Source: Promethearchaeota archaeon | GTDB taxonomy: Archaea > Asgardarchaeota > Lokiarchaeia > Sigyniarchaeales > SOKP01 | Assembly: GCA_048941285.1 (NCBI GenBank) | Contig: JBHLNS010000009.1 | Location: 1 to 64,000 of the forward strand | Length of the DNA: 64,000 nucleotides | Direction of reading: 5' to 3' | In this document: piece by piece, positions 1,026 to 48,944 of the stretch | How positions within the stretch are numbered: the stretch's first letter is position 1 | Layout: every line of letters starts with the position of its first letter | Translations under genes and position numbers: made by a program | The notes under the pieces: generated by a model | Databases searched by the model: none | Told to the model about the DNA's origin: nothing | What the model saw: the letters and a program-made list of their open reading frames with translations, nothing else

Positions 1026-2231
1026 ATGAAGTCGTATATAGCAGATACCTTAATTGGAATTTTTGCATTTGATGAATCTGGGAATATCTTAAACTTTATT
1101 GATTTTAATGATGATAATGAGAAAATTTCTGAATTTTATAATGCCCTAGAAAATGATATTATTCAAAAAATATTTGAGGTCTTCTTATTAGATTTAAAAA
1201 ATTCTGGTTTTAATGAATTTATTTTTGACAATATTAAATTAGAATTACTAACTTCGGAAAAATTAGGCTATAAAACTCATTTAGAAAGCAAATCGTTAGA
1301 ACTCAAAACTTTTCGTTTTAATCTAGAACAAAATTTAAAGAAAGTTGGAATAAATAAAACAAGAGAAGAAATCCTAACAAAATATAAAGAAATAAGTGAT
1401 AAATTAACTAAAAAAAAAGTTAGCGAAGTAAGTGGGCATTCAGATAATATTATTATTCAAGTTATTACAGTTTTAGATGTTATTAAAAAATCAATAAGCC
1501 TATTTTCAAGTCATCTAAGGGAATGGTATGGATTACATTTTCCTGAGTTAACTGATAAAATTATTGAAGATAATATTACTTTGGCAAATCTAATAAGGAA
1601 TTTAGGCTCGAGGAAAAATTTTACGTTTGACAATATTAAAAATAAGGTAGATTTGAAAGAAAGCAAAATTAAAGTTATACAACAATATGCTTTAGAATCA
1701 ATGGGCGCAAATATTGACTTATCTTTGATACAAAATTATGCAGATCAAATTATTTCATTAGATGATTATCGTTTACAATTAGAGAATTATTTAGAAACAA
1801 TATTAGAAATTTTTGCTCCTAACCTTAATTCCTTAATCGGTTCCTTAATTGCCGCAAAATTAATAGCGAAGGCAGGCAGTTTACAAAAATTGGCTTATAT
1901 GCCAGCATCGAGAATTCAATTATTAGGCGCAGAAAAGGCATTATACCGATTTCTTAAAACTGGTGAAAAAAGACCAAAACACGGGTTAATATTTCAATGG
2001 AATCAGATTAGATCAGCGAAACCTTATCACCGAGGTAAGATTGCTAGAGTTGTAGCAGGAAAAATTGGAGTTGCTGCTAAAGTAGATTACTTCAATGGTG
2101 AATTTTTAGGTGATAAATTATTGCAGGGAATTGAAGAAAAAATAAAAGAAATTGAAATTAAATATCCGAGTCCTCCAAAAAAAGCACCAATAGCAAAAGC
2201 TAAGAAAAAGAAATCGAAGAAAAAAAGATAA
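1026..2231 (+). CDS. nop5: Box C/D sRNP protein Nop5 (Nop56/58 family)
   Basis: LREWYGLHFPEL, PASRIQLLGAEKALYRFL and PKHGLIFQ motifs; Lys-rich tail; directly upstream of fibrillarin. Confidence 0.95.
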   Translation: MKSYIADTLIGIFAFDESGNILNFIDFNDDNEKISEFYNALENDIIQKIFEVFLLDLKNSGFNEFIFDNIKLELLTSEKLGYKTHLESKSLELKTFRFNLEQNLKKVGINKTREEILTKYKEISDKLTKKKVSEVSGHSDNIIIQVITVLDVIKKSISLFSSHLREWYGLHFPELTDKIIEDNITLANLIRNLGSRKNFTFDNIKNKVDLKESKIKVIQQYALESMGANIDLSLIQNYADQIISLDDYRLQLENYLETILEIFAPNLNSLIGSLIAAKLIAKAGSLQKLAYMPASRIQLLGAEKALYRFLKTGEKRPKHGLIFQWNQIRSAKPYHRGKIARVVAGKIGVAAKVDYFNGEFLGDKLLQGIEEKIKEIEIKYPSPPKKAPIAKAKKKKSKKKR

Positions 2232-2251
2232 TATATTACAGCGAGAGGAAA

Positions 2252-2947
2252 ATGTTAAAAACTGAAATTAGAAAGCACCCTAAATTTTACAATGTGTTTA
2301 TTTCAGGAACTCAAGAGAGATTAAAACTCTATACAAAAAATTTAGATATAAATAAAAGAGTATATGGAGAGAAATTAATAACTTTTAAAGGGGTAGAATA
2401 CCGAGAATGGGATCCATTTAGAAGTAAATTAGCAGCATTACTTTTAGAAAATCCTATCACAAACTTTTTATCAGAAAATCTAAAATGTTTGTATTTAGGA
2501 GCATCTTCAGGAACTACAATTTCTCACCTTTCCGATATTATAAATTTTGGAATAATTTATGGTGTTGAGTTTGCTGAAAGAAGTATGAGACAATTAATCC
2601 AAAATATAGTAAATAGGGAAAATATTGTTCCAATATTGGAAGATGCACGTTTTCCAGAGAATTATGGTAAATATATTTTTACTAATATAGATTTAATTTA
2701 CCAAGATGTTGCTCAACCACGACAAGCAGAAATTGCTCTAAAAAATTGCAATTATTATTTAAAGAAGGGGGGAATTTTAATTCTTGCTATAAAATCTCAG
2801 TCAATTGATAGCATTCAAAAATCTGAAATTACATATACTCAGGAGAAAAAGATACTTGAAAAGGCCGGATATAAGGTTTTAGAAAGCATAAATATCCATA
2901 AATATGCTGCTAATCATATAGTTTTAATAGTTAAAAAAAGTGATTAG
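2252..2947 (+). CDS. flpA: Fibrillarin-like rRNA/tRNA 2'-O-methyltransferase
   Basis: YREWDPFRSKLAA, LYLGASSGTTISHLSD, DVAQPRQA. Confidence 0.96.
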   Translation: MLKTEIRKHPKFYNVFISGTQERLKLYTKNLDINKRVYGEKLITFKGVEYREWDPFRSKLAALLLENPITNFLSENLKCLYLGASSGTTISHLSDIINFGIIYGVEFAERSMRQLIQNIVNRENIVPILEDARFPENYGKYIFTNIDLIYQDVAQPRQAEIALKNCNYYLKKGGILILAIKSQSIDSIQKSEITYTQEKKILEKAGYKVLESINIHKYAANHIVLIVKKSD

Positions 2948-3666
2948 TCAAAAAATTCAGTGATTTTTTTTGAATATATTTCTTCATTTACTATTTTTTT
3001 CGTTGTATCCCACGATTTTCTTGCGATTTTAGGTATTTTTTTATTCTCTTTCACATAATTTCTGAGAAATTGGGTTGTTATAATATCAGAAGGGTATCCT
3101 GAACCAAAATTTCCATATTTCATATGCAATTCTTTTATTAGAGTATCTCTTTTATCTTTAGCAATTATAGACCCTGCCGAAACAATTGGATAGAGATCAT
3201 CAGCTTTATGTTTAGAAATTATTTTTTTGGGAGTATAATTCAATAATTGTTTTATAGATTTTCCGAATCTCTGCTCATTTACATCTGCAGCATCTATATA
3301 GATTATATCTGGCTGCAAATCGTTAATAATTTCTGCCATTTTTAACTCTTCAAGTCGATTCAATGTAAGTTTTTTACTTTCTCTTGCATCAATTTCTTGA
3401 GGACTAATTACAACTATTTTGTGTGAATGACACTTACTCTGCAAGAGATTATTTAACTCACTTCTACTTTTGGGAGATAATTTTTTTGAATCTTTAACCC
3501 CAATTTCAGATAATAAGTTTATTTTTGATTTTTTGAAACAAACTCCACATATAACCATAGGACCTAAGACAGAGCCTTTTAACATATAATTCGAAGAGAA
3601 TTAAATTCTACCAGCCTCGTCGATCCCACAGATTAATTCGATTTTATCCTCACGATTCTTGTACAA
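2944..3666 (-). CDS. rnhB: Ribonuclease HII, split by a predicted 30-nt BHB intron (exon 1 3666-3608, exon 2 3577-2944; about 230 aa spliced)
   Basis: The track ORF (start 3585) lacks the N-terminal catalytic motif. In-frame upstream sequence encodes ELICGIDEAGR, separated from GSVLGPMV by 30 nt containing TAA. KADDLYPIVSAGSIIAK and GSGYPSD occur downstream. The start at TTG 3666 is inferred. Confidence 0.9.
3578..3607 (-). other. Predicted BHB (tRNA-type) intron in rnhB mRNA: AATTTAATTCTCTTCGAATTATATGTTAAA
   Basis: Central helix UGGU/GUUA, 3-nt bulges AG|A and AA|A, inner stem AUUUAAUUC/GAAUUAUAU, exon-exon stem GACGAGGC/GGCUCUGUC. Removal restores DEAGRGSVLG and deletes the in-frame TAA at 3601-3603. 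Confidence 0.82.
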
Positions 3667-4651
3667 GTTCAATGAATTCTTCTTCATCATCGACTTCTTC
3701 TAAATTTTTAATTTTAACAATAGGGATATTTGTATTTTTTAACTGTTCAGGAATTTTGATATCATTATCAATTATGAAAAGTGAATTTTTATGAAATAGA
3801 TCTGTGAATAACTTTAGACATTGGAAATTCATTTCATTTATTTTTCCTTGTTCTTCAGAGATCCCAGAAAATAGAGGATAAAAGCTATCTTTACTTATCT
3901 TAGGTGAATGAGAGTATAAAGATAATTTGAAAGGAATAGATCCTTTTTTATACCAATAAGAAGAAAGACCAATATCCATTATTATATCTTGAACATGTGA
4001 TTCAAATTTGCTTAATTCTTTTTCTTCTGAAACTCCTTTTTCATCTAAATCATCTTTTATTGTCCATTCAAAAAGATTTATTTTCTTAAAGAGATCATTA
4101 TTTTCTAATATCTCTGATATTTGTTCAGCAATTTTCTCTGACGGTCGCATAGATTCATTTTCATATGAACATATAGTTCTCTTTGTAACTCCTAAGATTT
4201 CTGATAATTCTTTTCGTGATATTAAATTTTTTTCTCTTAAGATTTTCATTAATTTACCATCTAAAAATACTATTGCTCCACCTCTTCTCGCTAATATATG
4301 TGGATAATGGCCATTAAGTATATTTTCTAATGTATTAAGTGTTATAAAGGGTAAACCCTCTCTTACATAAATAGTATTGTCTTCTAGTTTCTGGTACCGA
4401 TTTCTGATTCCAATTAGTAAAGGCTTTGATTTAAGGATTAAGGATAATGATTTTATGTCATGAATAACACTTTCATTTAGGTTATCTATATTAGGAAATA
4501 TTTTAACACTGAATACCAAATCTTCTTTCTTAACTAAAAGATCAAAACAGAATTTATTTTTATTAATAGCAAAATTTCCCAATGCTAATGTTTCATAATT
4601 AGCCTTCTTTAATAATACATCAATCCTTTGAATTATCTTTTCAATCGTCAA
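3650..4651 (-). CDS. Archaeal HTH transcriptional regulator (COG1395-like)
   Basis: FDLLVKK N-terminal domain, ARRGG and XRE-type HTH SRKELSEILGVTKRTICSYEN. Confidence 0.85.
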   Translation of the reverse strand: MTIEKIIQRIDVLLKKANYETLALGNFAINKNKFCFDLLVKKEDLVFSVKIFPNIDNLNESVIHDIKSLSLILKSKPLLIGIRNRYQKLEDNTIYVREGLPFITLNTLENILNGHYPHILARRGGAIVFLDGKLMKILREKNLISRKELSEILGVTKRTICSYENESMRPSEKIAEQISEILENNDLFKKINLFEWTIKDDLDEKGVSEEKELSKFESHVQDIIMDIGLSSYWYKKGSIPFKLSLYSHSPKISKDSFYPLFSGISEEQGKINEMNFQCLKLFTDLFHKNSLFIIDNDIKIPEQLKNTNIPIVKIKNLEEVDDEEEFIELVQES

Positions 4652-25044: not shown

Positions 25045-25518
25045 TTATAGAGAGTCCATTTCCAATTCCATTAAATAGGCACTTTCTCCCGATTGATAAT
25101 AATTTTTAAGTATCTCGGGATTTTTTTTGAATTTAAATTTTTCATATAATTTTATAGCGTTTGAATTACTTATTTGAACGTTTAATACAATCTTTTTAAT
25201 TTCTTTTACTTTTTTTAGTTCTTCTATGGTTTTTTGAAGAAGGAATGAACCATAACCTTTATTTTGAAATTTTGGTTTTATAAGAAAATTAATCATATTT
25301 GCTCTCTCTTTTTGATCTCTTATAACTATAATAAAACCAATTAATTTTTTTTTTCCTTTGTTATTTTCTAATTTTAGAAAGAGTGCATTATTTTCTAATA
25401 GATTTCTCAGTAAATCCTTAGAAAAAGCATTCTTCTTGAAAATTTTTTGCTCAAGATTCACAATTTTTTTTAAATCTTTTGTTGTTACTTTTTTAATTTC
25501 CATTAAAACCATATTCAT
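25045..25518 (-). CDS. GNAT N-acetyltransferase (RimI/Ard1-like)
   Basis: FQNKGYGSFL, LNVQISNSNAIKLYEKF, NYYQSGESAYLM. Confidence 0.88.
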   Translation of the reverse strand: MNMVLMEIKKVTTKDLKKIVNLEQKIFKKNAFSKDLLRNLLENNALFLKLENNKGKKKLIGFIIVIRDQKERANMINFLIKPKFQNKGYGSFLLQKTIEELKKVKEIKKIVLNVQISNSNAIKLYEKFKFKKNPEILKNYYQSGESAYLMELEMDSL

Positions 25519-26644
25519 CCATAAATATTTTTAAGGGAGTTTTTTCTGTTATTTGCTGATATTTTAATTCTCTAAAAGGTGTTGTTTCTATTACGAAGCC
25601 TTTTAATTTATACCTTTCTATTAAAGATATTACTTGATCGTTAATTGAAATATAGAAGGGCATTCTAATATATTTTTCAGTATAGGAAAGCAGTTTACTA
25701 TGAATTTTTAATTCATAGAGTAAATCCTTATATAATTTGACCAAATCTTTTTCTCCCCCTTCAATTTGTCCAAATAATAAAAGACCTTCCTCAGTGATTA
25801 CTTCATAAGGTAATTTAATATTTTTAGCTCTGCGAAGATATCTATTTTTCAATTGATGGTAATCTTTCGCCCGTATGGAACAAAAATGGATCTTTAAAGA
25901 AATTTCCGATCCTAATTTTCGCATTAGACTAATTGCTGTTTCTCTGCTATTAACAACAGATGCGATTGAATCTTTTTTTAATTCGAATCCTCTAGACTTA
26001 AGTGATTGACTATTAGGAAAACAGTATTCGAATTCATTTATATTAATAAAATCTGCTCCGATATTATCTAAATAAAATATCAATTCCTCAAGGGATTTTT
26101 TTCTTTCTTCTCCAGGGATTGCTGGAACTTCAGCACCTACACTCATCTCCCAATCTAGAGCCTCTTTAATATTTTTCCAGTTTTTTTTCGCGGGGTGAAA
26201 TCGTAATTCATCCAATCCCGCAAGAGAAAGTCTTTTAGCAATATTTTGATTAAAGTTAATACCATTTGTATATAAATGGATGTGAAACCTTCTTCCTTTA
26301 ATACCTTTAATATAATTAATATAATCTACAGTTTTTTCTAAATTTTTCTCTGAAAGTGGTTCTCCCCCTGTAATACTCATTCCTTGAGCATCCATCATGT
26401 TAATTTCTTGTAATAATTCATCTTTATTTTTAATTTGCACTTCATTGGCGAATGTTATATCTTTACCTCTCCTTTCATCTGAAATAGGACAGTACCAATA
26501 ACAATGATCAGGTTTTTGACAGATACCATTTAAAAATAAAACTAATTTAGATCCTCTTAAACAATATTTACATCCTTTAGGAATACCTTTTCCTTTAATA
26601 TAGTAAGTTTCTTCCTTATTTTTTACTAATTTTGCTTTTTTCAT
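25493..26644 (-). CDS. Radical SAM protein (COG2108-like)
   Basis: PKGCKYC, C..CYWYCP, SITGGEPL, HIHLYT, LDELRFHP, NINEFE. Confidence 0.88.
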   Translation of the reverse strand: MKKAKLVKNKEETYYIKGKGIPKGCKYCLRGSKLVLFLNGICQKPDHCYWYCPISDERRGKDITFANEVQIKNKDELLQEINMMDAQGMSITGGEPLSEKNLEKTVDYINYIKGIKGRRFHIHLYTNGINFNQNIAKRLSLAGLDELRFHPAKKNWKNIKEALDWEMSVGAEVPAIPGEERKKSLEELIFYLDNIGADFININEFEYCFPNSQSLKSRGFELKKDSIASVVNSRETAISLMRKLGSEISLKIHFCSIRAKDYHQLKNRYLRRAKNIKLPYEVITEEGLLLFGQIEGGEKDLVKLYKDLLYELKIHSKLLSYTEKYIRMPFYISINDQVISLIERYKLKGFVIETTPFRELKYQQITEKTPLKIFMDEYGFNGN

Positions 26645-27348
26645 ATTTTAAATAATTTTTTTCTTATGATGGATTTCTTTTTTGCTAAGCTTTTTAAAAC
26701 GTCTTCTGTGGTTTCGTTAATCTGGATTGATCTTTTCAGAAATACTCCAGTTCTTCCATACTTTTCTCTTCTTAAAAGGACTTTCTTTCTTTCATTTAAA
26801 GTGCCAATACTAATACCTAATTCTTTCGCTATATGAGCTTCATTCCCAATTATTGAAATTTCTTCGTGTCCTTGAGAATTTGGTTTGATTAATACTAGTC
26901 TTTTATCTATACCCATTACTCGTAAATCTGATTTCAATTGATTTATATCTATTTTCCCTCCAAAATCATAGAATTCCATATTTTTTTTGTCAAGTCTAGA
27001 TAAAGGCAATGTGATACAATCTAATTCACTTAAATGGATATACAATTTAATAGAATCTACGGGTGTAGCCATTAATATTTCCCTAAAATAATTTTTATAG
27101 TTGTTTTTTTCTAAAACAAGCTCTATTTGGAATGGAGGAATTTGTTGAAAAAAAACAATATCGATATCACTATCTTCGTGAACATCACCACGAGCTATAC
27201 TTCCGTGAACGATTGGATTGAACCCTTCTTTAGCAAACATCTCTAATAAATTTAAAGCAGTTTTCCTTTTTTTTTTAAAGAGAATCCAATCTTCTTTAGA
27301 GTATATTATTTTTTCACAATGATCTCTTAAAATTTTTTCTTTTTTCAT
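26641..27348 (-). CDS. Nucleotidyltransferase-domain protein (COG2413-like)
   Basis: HGSIARGDVHEDSDIDI, FYDFGG, GIDKRL, GRTGVF. Confidence 0.88.
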   Translation of the reverse strand: MKKEKILRDHCEKIIYSKEDWILFKKKRKTALNLLEMFAKEGFNPIVHGSIARGDVHEDSDIDIVFFQQIPPFQIELVLEKNNYKNYFREILMATPVDSIKLYIHLSELDCITLPLSRLDKKNMEFYDFGGKIDINQLKSDLRVMGIDKRLVLIKPNSQGHEEISIIGNEAHIAKELGISIGTLNERKKVLLRREKYGRTGVFLKRSIQINETTEDVLKSLAKKKSIIRKKLFKI

Positions 27349-32292: not shown

Positions 32293-33765
32293 ATGAATGT
32301 TAATAAAATTGATGACAATATCTACGAGATTCCTCCAAAAACATTAATGACAAGGATTAAAGGAAATATTGAAAAGTTTCAAATGAAGGTTCCCGTCAAA
32401 ATTTATGCTAATGATTATATTTTAGAAAAAATCCGGATAGATCGTACATTGGACCAGATATGTAACGTTGCTTGCTTATCTGGGATACAAAAACATGCTA
32501 TCGCTTTATCAGATGCTCATCAAGGGTATGGTTTTTGTATTGGGGGTGTTGCTGGAACAGATGCAGAGGATGGAATGATTTCTCCCGGTGGTGTAGGCTA
32601 TGATATTAATTGTGGTGTAAGACTGTTAAGATCAAACTTGTCTCTTAATGATATTAACAGTGTTCTTCCTAATCTGTTGGATAAAATCTTTGATAATATT
32701 CCTTCAGGTTTAGGTTCAAAAGGTAAACTTAATATAAACTATTCAGAGTTAGATAAAGTGCTAAATAATGGGGTGAGATGGGCAGTAGACAATGATTATG
32801 GTATTGAAGAGGATCTTAAACATTTGGAAGAAAATGGATGTTTAAAGGATGCGGATGCTAGTCTAGTTTCTCAAAAGGCAAAACAACGCGCAATAAAGCA
32901 ACTAGGTTCTTTAGGAAGTGGAAATCATTTTCTAGAAATACAAAAAGTCGATGAAATTTATAATGAAGGAGTTGCCAAAACTCTCGGAATACATGAAAAG
33001 AATCAAATTACTGTTATGGTTCATACAGGAAGTAGAGCGCTGGGACATCAAGTATGCACAGATTCTTTACGCAACATTGAACAAGCCATGAAAAAATATA
33101 ATGTAAAAGTTCCTGATAGAGAACTAGCATGTGTTCCTGCCAATACTTCTGAAGCACAAAACTATTTAAAACAAATGGCATGTGCAGCTAATTTTGGATT
33201 CACAAACCGTCAATTAATCACGCATTGGTTAAGGGAATCCTTTCAAAACATCTTTAGGAAGGATATAGATGATTTAGATCTACATCTAATTTATGGAGTT
33301 TGCCATAATATTTTAAAAATAGAAGAACATGAAATCAATGGTAAAAGGATGAAATTAAACGTTCATAGAAAAGGTGCTACAAGGGCCTTTCCACCAAATC
33401 ATCCTGCTTTACCGTCTAGATATAAATCTATAGGACAGCCAGTTTTAATACCCGGAACGATGGGTTCTGCATCATATCTCTGTGTTGGTAAAGAAAAAGC
33501 AATGGATCTGTCTTTTGGCTCTACAGCTCATGGTTCTGGAAGATTAATGTCGAGATCTAAAGCAACGAAAAAATATTGGGGTGAGCGAGTTAAAGAGAGT
33601 CTAAGCCAACAAGGCATCCTAGTGAGAGCTGCTTCTATGAAGGTGATCGCTGAAGAGGCCCCTGGTGCATATAAAGACATAGATCAAGTTGTTCAAGTGA
33701 GCCATGATCTTGAAATCGTTGAAAAAGTAGTTAGGCTAGTTCCTATAGGGGTTGTAAAGGGATAA
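32293..33765 (+). CDS. rtcB: RtcB RNA-splicing ligase
   Basis: DAHQGYGFCIG, GVGYDINCGVR, GSGNHFLE, HTGSR, HRKGATRA, IPGTMG, HGSGR, EEAPGAYKD. Confidence 0.97.
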   Translation: MNVNKIDDNIYEIPPKTLMTRIKGNIEKFQMKVPVKIYANDYILEKIRIDRTLDQICNVACLSGIQKHAIALSDAHQGYGFCIGGVAGTDAEDGMISPGGVGYDINCGVRLLRSNLSLNDINSVLPNLLDKIFDNIPSGLGSKGKLNINYSELDKVLNNGVRWAVDNDYGIEEDLKHLEENGCLKDADASLVSQKAKQRAIKQLGSLGSGNHFLEIQKVDEIYNEGVAKTLGIHEKNQITVMVHTGSRALGHQVCTDSLRNIEQAMKKYNVKVPDRELACVPANTSEAQNYLKQMACAANFGFTNRQLITHWLRESFQNIFRKDIDDLDLHLIYGVCHNILKIEEHEINGKRMKLNVHRKGATRAFPPNHPALPSRYKSIGQPVLIPGTMGSASYLCVGKEKAMDLSFGSTAHGSGRLMSRSKATKKYWGERVKESLSQQGILVRAASMKVIAEEAPGAYKDIDQVVQVSHDLEIVEKVVRLVPIGVVKG

Positions 33766-47717: not shown

Positions 47718-47824
47718 GGGCTATTGGCGCAGGCAGGTAGCGCAGCAGGCTTTTAACCTGACATTTATGGGAAGATCTCCCATAAAAAGAAAGGTCGGGG
47801 GTTCAATTCCCCTATAGCCCGCCA
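47718..47824 (+). tRNA. tRNA-Lys(TTT) with a 30-nt intron at about 44/45 (47763-47792) and encoded CCA
   Basis: Acceptor GGGCTAT/ATAGCCC then GCCA; anticodon CAGG-CTTTTAA-CCTG; intron hairpin TTTATGGGA/TCCCATAAA; T-loop TTCAATT. Confidence 0.88.
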
Positions 47825-47939: not shown

Positions 47940-48944
47940 ATGGAAAATTTAGAATTTAAGCTTCCATCCGATGAACCTGAGCAGTTATTAGTTAAATCTC
48001 AGGATGATACAAACCCAGATTATGGATGTGAACCAAATAAAAGAAGTATTGAAGCACTTCTACAATACGGTGTGATAAATCTAGACAAACCTAGTGGCCC
48101 TACTAGCCATGAAGTTGTCTCATGGGTTCGTAAAATTTTGAATATATCAAGCGCAGGTCATGGAGGAACGCTCGATCCTAAGGTTACTGGTGTATTACCA
48201 TGTGCTTTAGGAAATGCAACTCGTGTATTATCCGCATTATTAAGTGCTGGTAAAGAATATGTTGGGGTAATGTATTTACATACGTCAGAAAAACAAGAAA
48301 GGATAGAAAAAGTATTTAAATTATTTACTGGAAAAATTTATCAAAGGCCTCCATTGAAGTCATCAGTCGTTAGAAAGCTAAGGATAAGAGAGGTATATTA
48401 TTGTGAAGCTATCGAGGTTGAGAAGAATTATGTTTTATTTAGAATTGGATGTGAAGCTGGAACTTACGTCAGAAAATTTTGCTTTGATATAGGAGAAGCT
48501 CTCTGTTCAGGAGCTCATATGCTCGAGCTTAGAAGAACTAGAGTTGGGAATTTCAAAGAAAATGACAACCTTACATCGCTACAGAATTTAAAGGATGCAT
48601 ATACAATTTATCAACTAGAAGAAAATGAGTATTATTTGAAAAAAATAATCTATCCCATGGAAAAGATGGTATCCCATTTGCCAAAAATTTATGTTAGGGA
48701 CACTGCGGTCGACGCATTATGCCATGGAGCAGATTTGGCATCCGCTGGTATTTGTTATATTGATGCTAGAATAAAAAAGAATATGTTAATAGCATACATG
48801 ACTTTAAAAAAAGAGTTAGTTGGATTTGGGACAACATTAAAGGATGCTTTACAAATTTATAAAGCGAAATCAGGAATTTTAGCAAAAACCAATAAAATTT
48901 TTATGGAAAGAGGAATATATCCGCGATGGAAGGAGAAAAAATAA
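47940..48944 (+). CDS. cbf5: H/ACA RNA-guided pseudouridine synthase Cbf5
   Basis: INLDKPSGPTSHEV, GHGGTLDPKVTG, IYQRPPLKSSV, CEAGTYVR, PUA domain. Confidence 0.96.
   Translation: MENLEFKLPSDEPEQLLVKSQDDTNPDYGCEPNKRSIEALLQYGVINLDKPSGPTSHEVVSWVRKILNISSAGHGGTLDPKVTGVLPCALGNATRVLSALLSAGKEYVGVMYLHTSEKQERIEKVFKLFTGKIYQRPPLKSSVVRKLRIREVYYCEAIEVEKNYVLFRIGCEAGTYVRKFCFDIGEALCSGAHMLELRRTRVGNFKENDNLTSLQNLKDAYTIYQLEENEYYLKKIIYPMEKMVSHLPKIYVRDTAVDALCHGADLASAGICYIDARIKKNMLIAYMTLKKELVGFGTTLKDALQIYKAKSGILAKTNKIFMERGIYPRWKEKK

Follow-up and report, generated by a model that had tools for sequence, protein, structure and literature searches.

The locus described here raises the question of how an archaeon could obtain an active ribonuclease HII (RNase HII) from a gene whose catalytic motif is interrupted by a short insert with an in-frame stop codon. 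The gene, rnhB, is located on the minus strand of the first 64,000 nucleotides (nt) of contig JBHLNS010000009.1 of a Promethearchaeota archaeon; this whole stretch is referred to as the window, all positions are window coordinates, and all rnhB features are on the minus strand. The host genome (3.55 Mb, 29.7% G+C, 94% complete) is a draft of 101 contigs. As we will argue, the 30 nt at 3607-3578 are very probably a bulge-helix-bulge (BHB) intron of the rnhB pre-mRNA, which would be excised by the tRNA-splicing endonuclease EndA, with the exons being joined by the RNA ligase RtcB. The most likely answer to the question is that the rnhB mRNA must be spliced like a tRNA in order to yield an active enzyme.

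A first-pass annotation, made from the letters of the sequence, had claimed an insert at 3578-3607 in a gene for RNase HII, and the minus-strand sequence that it quoted is present at that place. When the gene is read without interruption it gives ...CGIDEAGR-I-stop-FSSNYMLK-GSVLGPM..., the second full codon of the insert being TAA. The identity of the gene was borne out by searches with the read-through translation (with X at the stop), which matched positions 1-205 of the 207 in NCBIfam TIGR00729 (archaeal RNase HII; E 1.3e-58) and positions 1-199 of the 199 in Pfam PF01351 (E 3.1e-42); both matches extend across the insert. The insert is placed after the second base of the Arg codon in DEAGRG, a motif whose Asp and Glu are catalytic residues of RNase HII, and the exon base 3577 completes this codon as AGA. 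Exon 1 (3608..3672, start uncertain) encodes ...CGIDEAG and ends with the AG of the Arg codon; the BHB-type intron (3578..3607, 30 nt) carries the TAA in the frame of exon 1; and exon 2 (2944..3577) opens with the third base of that same codon for Arg, continues with GSVLGPM... and finishes with a TAA stop at 2946-2944. The intron is present in a single copy in the genome (blastn; next match E = 3).

Before considering splicing, two simpler explanations had to be weighed. In the first one, the insert would be an assembly or sequencing artefact, an idea with nothing in its favor beyond the draft state of the genome, in 101 contigs. In the second one, rnhB would be a decaying gene disabled by an insertion, which produces either an inactive protein from the ATG inside the intron or nothing at all. 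In agreement with the latter, the locus reads as broken under translation table 11, and the mechanical list of open reading frames (ORFs) includes a 213-amino-acid (aa) ORF (2944-3585) that opens at the ATG at 3585, within the insert, and lacks the Asp-Glu of DEAGRG. However, a PF01351 search of the genome found the interrupted rnhB as its single RNase HII locus, so that the intact copy elsewhere which would have pointed to a pseudogene is absent. The evidence that bears most directly on both explanations comes from the relatives of the host.

In a first comparison, a search for the RNase HII family in 41 relatives gave matches of about 630 nt with an internal stop in nearly every genome of the host's genus, and of about 603-606 nt with no stops in the other genera of the order. 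The family of the host in GTDB (f1) comprises 135 genomes, 127 of them with an RNase HII hit. For the scoring of the junction 110 loci were fetched and 107 were scored, since three loci from other families (L004, L009 and L026) failed the motif expression; the insert was found at the identical codon position in 82 of the 107. It measures 30 nt in 77 loci, 29 nt in two, 28 nt in one and 31 nt in one, and in a further locus (L100, genome G021) a 30-nt insert is followed by N, for which reason it was counted as intron-bearing and enters no alignment. A phylum-wide RNase HII family search showed no stops in matches outside f1 among the best 150 of 383. As weaker matches might include interrupted genes, this search was replaced by a scan with an IUPAC pattern of the interrupted junction, which matched the host genome and 81 of 134 in family f1, making 82 of the 400 genomes sampled over the phylum, and none of the 265 genomes in more than 30 other families; a control with the reversed pattern gave no matches. 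Taking the pattern scan together with the N-flanked locus, 83 of the 127 genomes of the family are intron-bearing, 43 are intron-less and one is unscorable. Expressed per genus, the intron is present in 51 of 52 genomes of g1, 1 of 1 of g13, 5 of 5 of g15, 4 of 4 of g16, 1 of 2 of g17, 3 of 8 of g21, 14 of 39 of g22 and 4 of 7 of g23, and in none of g12, g14, g18, g19 and g20.

The presence of the insert in 83 independently assembled genomes, with sequences that differ among them, refutes the artefact, which we regard as having practically no chance of being true; the assembly error that the first-pass annotation wished to see excluded can be set aside. Regarding gene decay, the 83 genomes keep both the insert and intact exons. 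Among intron-bearing loci the protein identity goes down to 50% (median 65%) and that of the intron down to 20% (median 73%). In spite of this, the seven residues before the insert read C-G-[ILV]-D-E-A-G without exception in the 81 intron-bearing loci, with wobble bases that vary freely, which indicates that exon 1 is translated and under selection, and consequently that the insert must be removed or skipped. The remaining counts were made on an alignment of 77 distinct junctions (A1; the 81 loci minus the four duplicates L037, L054, L098 and L101). A stop in the frame of exon 1 is found inside the insert in all 77 sequences. The intron ATG leads into exon 2 without meeting a stop in just 38 of them, so the truncated product is not conserved; moreover, it would lack the catalytic Asp and Glu. 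Hence the truncated protein proposed in the first-pass annotation does exist as an ORF in this genome, but it is not a conserved feature, and the decay of the gene appears extremely improbable.

If the insert has to be removed or skipped, the next question is where the cuts would lie. When the insert was removed in silico, open frames of 216-224 aa were obtained in 105 of 105 complete loci, including those with inserts of 28, 29 and 31 nt (L101, of genome G076, is cut short by the end of its contig and does not enter this count). The codon rebuilt after the excision is AGA in 77 loci, AGG in three and AAA in one, and the resulting Arg or Lys agrees with the residue present in the intron-less relatives. 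In four loci the length of the insert is not a multiple of three. The mature sequence permits just two pairs of cuts in most genomes; in L038, L047 and L061 the insert starts with T, and thus only a cut after AG combined with one before the final A or G rebuilds the Arg codon. Placed in this way, the predicted cuts fall after the second base of each of two three-base bulges, each bulge lying 3' of its strand of the central helix. It had been proposed that such cuts would restore both the frame and the motif, and an Arg or Lys codon is indeed rebuilt by them in 81 of 81 loci. The same geometry follows from the canonical 37/38 intron of tRNAs. When it was applied to six tRNA introns called by ARAGORN in the host genome, the central helix was complete (4/4 pairs) in three, had 3/4 pairs in two and 2/4 in one, a calibration that lends weak support; a seventh call, with an "intron" of 1953 nt, was skipped.

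The skipping of the insert by the ribosome would be the other way to restore the protein. In such a translational bypass, the ribosome would take off at the Gly codon before the insert and land on the Gly codon after it, with the hairpin acting as the bypass signal. The gene 60 of phage T4 provides a known example, with which rnhB shares an untranslated gap in the coding sequence, a stop after the take-off site and a hairpin. A bypass would tolerate inserts of 28-31 nt, the stop soon after the take-off site is present in every one of the 77 sequences, and the take-off codon lies in the hairpin. Nevertheless, the bypass in T4 uses matched take-off and landing codons, while in rnhB the two Gly codons agree in no more than 18 of the 77 sequences, combinations such as GGT/GGG, GGT/GGA and GGC/GGA being also present. 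In addition, the product would lose the Arg-Gly of DEAGRG, which is kept in every intron-less relative, and a bypass leaves without explanation that AG plus A or G always makes Arg or Lys, as well as the exact spacing of 4 base pairs (bp) between the two three-base bulges. Taken together, these observations make a bypass very improbable, and we return to the excision of the insert from the RNA.

The evidence that the insert is an intron of the BHB type comes from the pairing of its bases across the family. In the host, the central 4-bp helix is formed by 3610..3613 (the third base of the Ala codon and the Gly codon, in exon 1) and by 3580..3583, within the intron, which pairs with 3613-3610. 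The 5' bulge, A-G-A, occupies 3607..3609 (alignment columns 23, 24 and 26), with the predicted cut between 3608 and 3607, and the 3' bulge, A-A-A, occupies 3577..3579 (columns 54-56), with the predicted cut between 3578 and 3577. The bulge columns are left out of the pairing by construction. Inside the intron, 3598..3606 pairs with 3592-3584 to form the inner helix, with 3584..3592 as its 3' strand, and a hairpin loop of five bases (3593..3597) closes it. The outer helix joins exon to exon, with 3614..3621 (Asp, Glu and Ala codons) as 5' strand and 3568..3576 (Gly, Ser/Pro and Val codons) as 3' strand. The structure, as proposed in the first-pass annotation, was counted on the 77 sequences of A1, and as controls the 3' partners were slid by 1-3 columns. 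In the proposed register 85.7% of the cells are paired, compared with 28-43% in the slid ones, and 13 of 25 pairs have changed on both sides.

The central helix (columns 19-22 with 50-53) is paired in 93.5% of the cells, against 28.9% and 37.0% in the registers shifted by one, and against 76.2% for the alternative central helix taken from the minimum free energy (MFE) structure of the host's own sequence. Two of its four pairs change on both sides, and its outermost pair is U-G, C-G, G-C or U-A depending on the genome. This variety of pair types shows that the wobble base of the exon Gly codon covaries with a base of the intron. The inner helix covaries throughout: all nine pairs change on both sides, 87.5% of the cells are paired, and several genera have entirely different sequences in the inner stem with the pairing kept; in the host there is one U-U mismatch. 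Both helices had thus been drawn correctly from one sequence, the central one with its one Watson-Crick and three G-U pairs and the inner one with its U-U, and the compensatory changes expected from an alignment of orthologs, with the insert present in some relatives and absent in others, were found as well. The last two bases of the loop are conserved, being U in 75 and C in 67 of the 77 sequences, even where the stems differ completely.

The outer helix has seven pairs, with 96.1% of the cells paired. Its existence is as announced, but not the regularity with which it had been drawn, given that it contains one A-C mismatch and one unpaired G. Further indications come from the synonymous sites of the exons, which in exon 1 change freely beyond the helix but are biased within it. 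The Glu codon is GAG in 80 of 81 intron-bearing loci and in 11 of 25 intron-less ones; the Gly codon before the cut is GGA in 0 of 81 and in 11 of 25, respectively; and in 80 of 81 the Ser/Pro codon that follows the cut ends in a pyrimidine. This synonymous-site bias supports the predicted outer helix. All the structural features of an archaeal BHB intron, namely the central, inner and outer helices and bulges in which the predicted cuts restore an intact reading frame, were found at this locus. An additional exon-exon helix in the MFE structure (columns 6-10 with 69-73) was dropped, being paired in 61.8% of the cells across the alignment. A self-splicing intron of group I or II was also rejected, because an insert of 28-31 nt is far from the hundreds of bases of a ribozyme core and there was no match in Rfam; a scan of 3300-3900 gave nothing above chance (best ceN106, 20.8 bits versus a gathering score of 60).

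It should be noted that several observations weigh against the removal of a BHB intron by EndA. In the host genome the central helix has just one Watson-Crick pair (U-A) and three G-U pairs. In the outer helix, the A-C mismatch is present in all 77 sequences, one of the two invariant G (3576/3575) beside the 3' bulge is unpaired or slipped, and only one of the seven pairs shows a change on both sides. The scarce covariation of this helix can be attributed to its coding function, and the three features together imply a slightly relaxed BHB motif. Energy calculations were also unfavorable: the host segment 3560-3632 has an MFE of -18.2 kcal/mol with z = -1.63, and 17 of 200 shuffles fold equally well or better; the MFE structure of the host is not a BHB; the MFE keeps all four central pairs in only 2 of the 77 sequences; and the BHB, when imposed on the fold, is less favorable by a median of 4.9 kcal/mol. 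We take this failure as a limit of energy models for bulged motifs that are bound by proteins, and not as support. The shuffle control of the alignment (0 of 500) is not a probability and overstates the support, as the sequences are relatives of one another. For this reason the argument is built on the comparison with slid and shifted registers and on the diversity of the pair types. In addition, all the genomes compared are assemblies of uncultured organisms, and the L1 loop considered below for the EndA of the host is taken from the literature on Asgard archaea and not from the host sequence. Finally, in the one metatranscriptome run that was found (share 0.06), RNA contigs were found on 3668-3700 and 4033-4300 and none on the junction. 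The first one has three mismatches and both of its flanks are unlike the window, so it is probably from another organism; the second is an exact match inside the upstream gene. This result says nothing for or against splicing.

The latter points also leave some room for the removal of the insert from the RNA by a route other than EndA, in which a different hairpin-specific nuclease with a ligase, or a recoding step, would restore the frame. The four loci whose insert length is not a multiple of three call for excision without naming the enzyme, the link between EndA and the rnhB RNA is drawn from sequence, and the MFE fold is not a BHB. On the other hand, the conserved geometry is exactly that of the substrates of EndA, the frame is restored solely by the EndA cut rule, and the genes for EndA and RtcB are both present in the genome. 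To our knowledge, no other system for the excision of small introns exists in archaea. We consider such a route improbable, although less so than a bypass, and EndA remains the preferred candidate.

By its gene content the host genome encodes the two enzymes expected for this type of splicing. It contains a pair of EndA paralogues, one of 198 and the other of 201 aa, both with an N-terminal and a catalytic C-terminal domain (PF01974, E 4.5e-30 and 1.1e-18; TIGR00324 was also matched), as would be expected for an (alpha-beta)2 enzyme with broad specificity. The two genes lie on different contigs, in the regions of C70 1987-2211 and C68 24269-24508. Asgard archaea have been reported to possess an (alpha-beta)2 EndA carrying an L1 loop that broadens its specificity (PMC5829648; bioRxiv 10.64898/2026.10.13.758758). 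The gene for RtcB, the expected joiner of the exons, lies in the same window as rnhB, at 32455..33762 on the plus strand (PF01139, E 1.6e-170), as an open frame without stops. The window also harbors a cbf5/TruB-family gene, which is uninterrupted, with the TruB_N matches at 48129-48470 (+) inside one open frame of 337 aa with no stops.

In the intron mode of ARAGORN only 13 tRNA genes were called in the whole genome, seven of them with introns, two of which measure 30 nt. Probably most of the tRNA genes of this genome are too interrupted for detection. Such a small number of calls, with introns in many of them, fits the heavy and partly undetectable interruption of tRNA genes described for Asgard archaea in bioRxiv 10.64898/2026.10.13.758758, PMC5829648 and PMC11291895. 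Two calls may be mentioned on their own. A tRNA-Lys(UUU) with a 19-nt intron was called at 47718-47824 (+) in the window, where the standard scan showed no tRNA, and on contig C81 of the host assembly (G000), at 25047-27093, the tRNA-Glu(UUC) with the 1953-nt "intron" might represent a truly long intron or a split tRNA, if the call is not simply false.

Considering these elements, the following mechanism can be proposed. In the transcript, exon 1 and exon 2 would pair to form the outer helix, and the last four bases of exon 1 before the AG would build the central helix with four bases close to the 3' end of the insert. The remainder of the insert would fold as a 9-bp hairpin, which would leave the two three-base bulges on opposite strands, 4 bp apart. 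EndA would cut after the second base of each bulge, and RtcB would ligate the exons and probably circularise the 30-mer. The joining would rebuild the Arg codon and with it the catalytic motif DEAGRGS. As the unspliced mRNA stops at the TAA of the insert, active RNase HII would depend on tRNA-type splicing. The action of EndA and RtcB on the rnhB RNA, the exact cuts and the circular intron are what we infer from these comparisons.

Another aspect to consider is the history of the intron. A maximum-likelihood tree of 105 deduced proteins was rooted on eight loci from other families. On this tree the state of the intron changes at least 10 times, and at least five of the changes are forced by branches with a value of 95 or more in the Shimodaira-Hasegawa-like approximate likelihood ratio test (SH-aLRT). 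The intron-less genes nest within intron-bearing clades, as is the case for the sole intron-less member of genus g1. These numbers are rough and the losses a minimum, since what was built is a gene tree and not one of species, and it includes 17 of the 43 intron-less f1 genomes. The simplest reading would be one gain near the base of the family followed by several exact losses.

It could also be thought that the intron is maintained as a gate, in such a way that the output of RNase HII would be tied to EndA and RtcB, as an Asgard counterpart of HAC1/XBP1 and possibly with a functional 30-nt circle. Some hints point in this direction: the length is fixed at 28-31 nt despite intron identities as low as 20%, every one of the 77 introns has the stop, and the loop bases are conserved. 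The conservation of the U and C of the loop, together with the stop in every intron, may reflect selection on more than the BHB. Against such a gate, the at least five independent precise losses argue that the intron is dispensable. Likewise, no second mRNA BHB intron was found in the host, where cbf5 is intact and where a genome scan was inspected in part by eye, a result that also speaks against a wider set of these introns. That scan covered both strands with the same BHB geometry, introns of 12-45 nt and an open frame restored across the junction, and it gave 355 candidates, in which the rnhB intron was recovered along with 354 others; those of the others that were inspected by eye are ordinary stop/start junctions of neighboring genes. 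A gate seems unlikely to us, and so does the related idea that rnhB is just the earliest example to come to light of a larger group of mRNA BHB introns in Asgard genomes, which gene callers would mis-annotate without notice.

The closest known case is the cbf5 intron of Crenarchaeota (Desulfurococcales and Sulfolobales), a short BHB-type intron in a coding gene, whose cutting is ascribed to a hetero-oligomeric EndA of relaxed specificity and which has a lineage-specific distribution of one gain and several losses (PMC2738675). The splicing of archaeal mRNA by the tRNA machinery has so far rested essentially on this one gene (PMC2738675). Both introns are of the same kind, in a protein-coding gene, and share the lineage-specific pattern of gain and loss. 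They differ in the host gene, which here is rnhB while cbf5 is intact; in the phylum, Asgard and not Crenarchaeota; and in that the rnhB insert interrupts a catalytic motif and keeps to a length of 28-31 nt. Furthermore, the splicing of cbf5 has been shown experimentally in some species, whereas that of rnhB is predicted. Compared with the BHB introns of archaeal tRNAs and rRNAs, the rnhB intron has the same three-base bulges, 4-bp helix, flanking helices, cut positions and expected enzymes (EndA, RtcB), but its substrate is an mRNA, with no tRNA body to help recognition. Most likely, rnhB would be the second host gene of archaeal mRNA BHB introns, in an Asgard lineage. A literature search returned no description of an RNase HII gene with an intron, nor of any BHB intron in an Asgard mRNA, within its scope, outside of which fell supplements and subscription journals, where an earlier mention is possible.

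Asgard archaea are the closest prokaryotic relatives of eukaryotes, and in the latter the HAC1/XBP1 system also removes a small mRNA intron without the spliceosome. In this system the endonuclease IRE1 cuts stem-loops, a tRNA ligase (RtcB in animals) joins the ends, and the splicing alters the reading frame of the product, as a regulated stress switch. IRE1-mediated splicing is named in PMC13149111. Both cases would share the non-spliceosomal removal of an mRNA intron by a protein endonuclease and a tRNA ligase, with a change of frame; the endonuclease is IRE1 there and the tRNA-splicing endonuclease is proposed here, and stress regulation is a feature of HAC1/XBP1. The rnhB intron offers a direct test of whether splicing of the HAC1/XBP1 type, carried out by protein enzymes on mRNA, had an archaeal antecedent, and for this reason it could be of interest both for archaeal RNA processing and for the question of how the splicing pathways of eukaryotes arose. 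The comparative support is unusually strong, as it brings together 83 genomes, compensatory changes and inserts whose length disrupts the frame. If our proposal is correct, a relaxed (alpha-beta)2 EndA, in a lineage crowded with tRNA introns, can take a protein-coding gene hostage as well, and the intron would be a clean natural system to study the gain and the precise loss of introns in prokaryotes. At a practical level, annotation pipelines probably label RNase HII, an essential enzyme of repair and replication, as truncated or broken in dozens of Asgard genomes.

Some minor observations on the locus and its relatives remain to be mentioned. The candidate starts of rnhB are the TTG at 3672-3670 and the TTG at 3666-3664, with no ATG start; both are the nearest canonical in-frame starts, 12 and 14 codons ahead of the Cys codon, and overlap the end of the upstream gene (its TGA is at 3652-3650). 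In five relatives (L015, L021, L077, L081 and L083) a stop in frame 4-5 codons upstream obliges the gene to start at a GTG, TTG or ATG located two codons before the Cys, where the host genome has TTA, and in many rnhB loci there is a purine-rich GAGGA-like motif about 12-15 nt upstream of this position. At its 3' end rnhB is convergent with two ORFs of 401 and 231 aa at 1026-2947 (+), with an overlap of 4 nt (2944-2947); from their translations alone we presume by eye that they are Nop56/58 and fibrillarin, respectively. In another family (f26, genus g53; L154-L160) the RNase HII matches score low (E 1e-16 to 1e-26) or split in two. Split genes were considered as an explanation of these low scores and rejected, as the loci are single open frames, 262-280 aa long, that contain an additional segment in frame and no intron. 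Lastly, some relatives carry a second, much longer open frame of 558-587 aa, in which a domain matches RNase HII (E 1e-22 to 1e-25, at positions 1-165 of the profile); no such frame occurs in the host genome, and the examples are located at G003:C18:144667-145191, G017:C9:18861-19388 and G138:C1:1537-2061.

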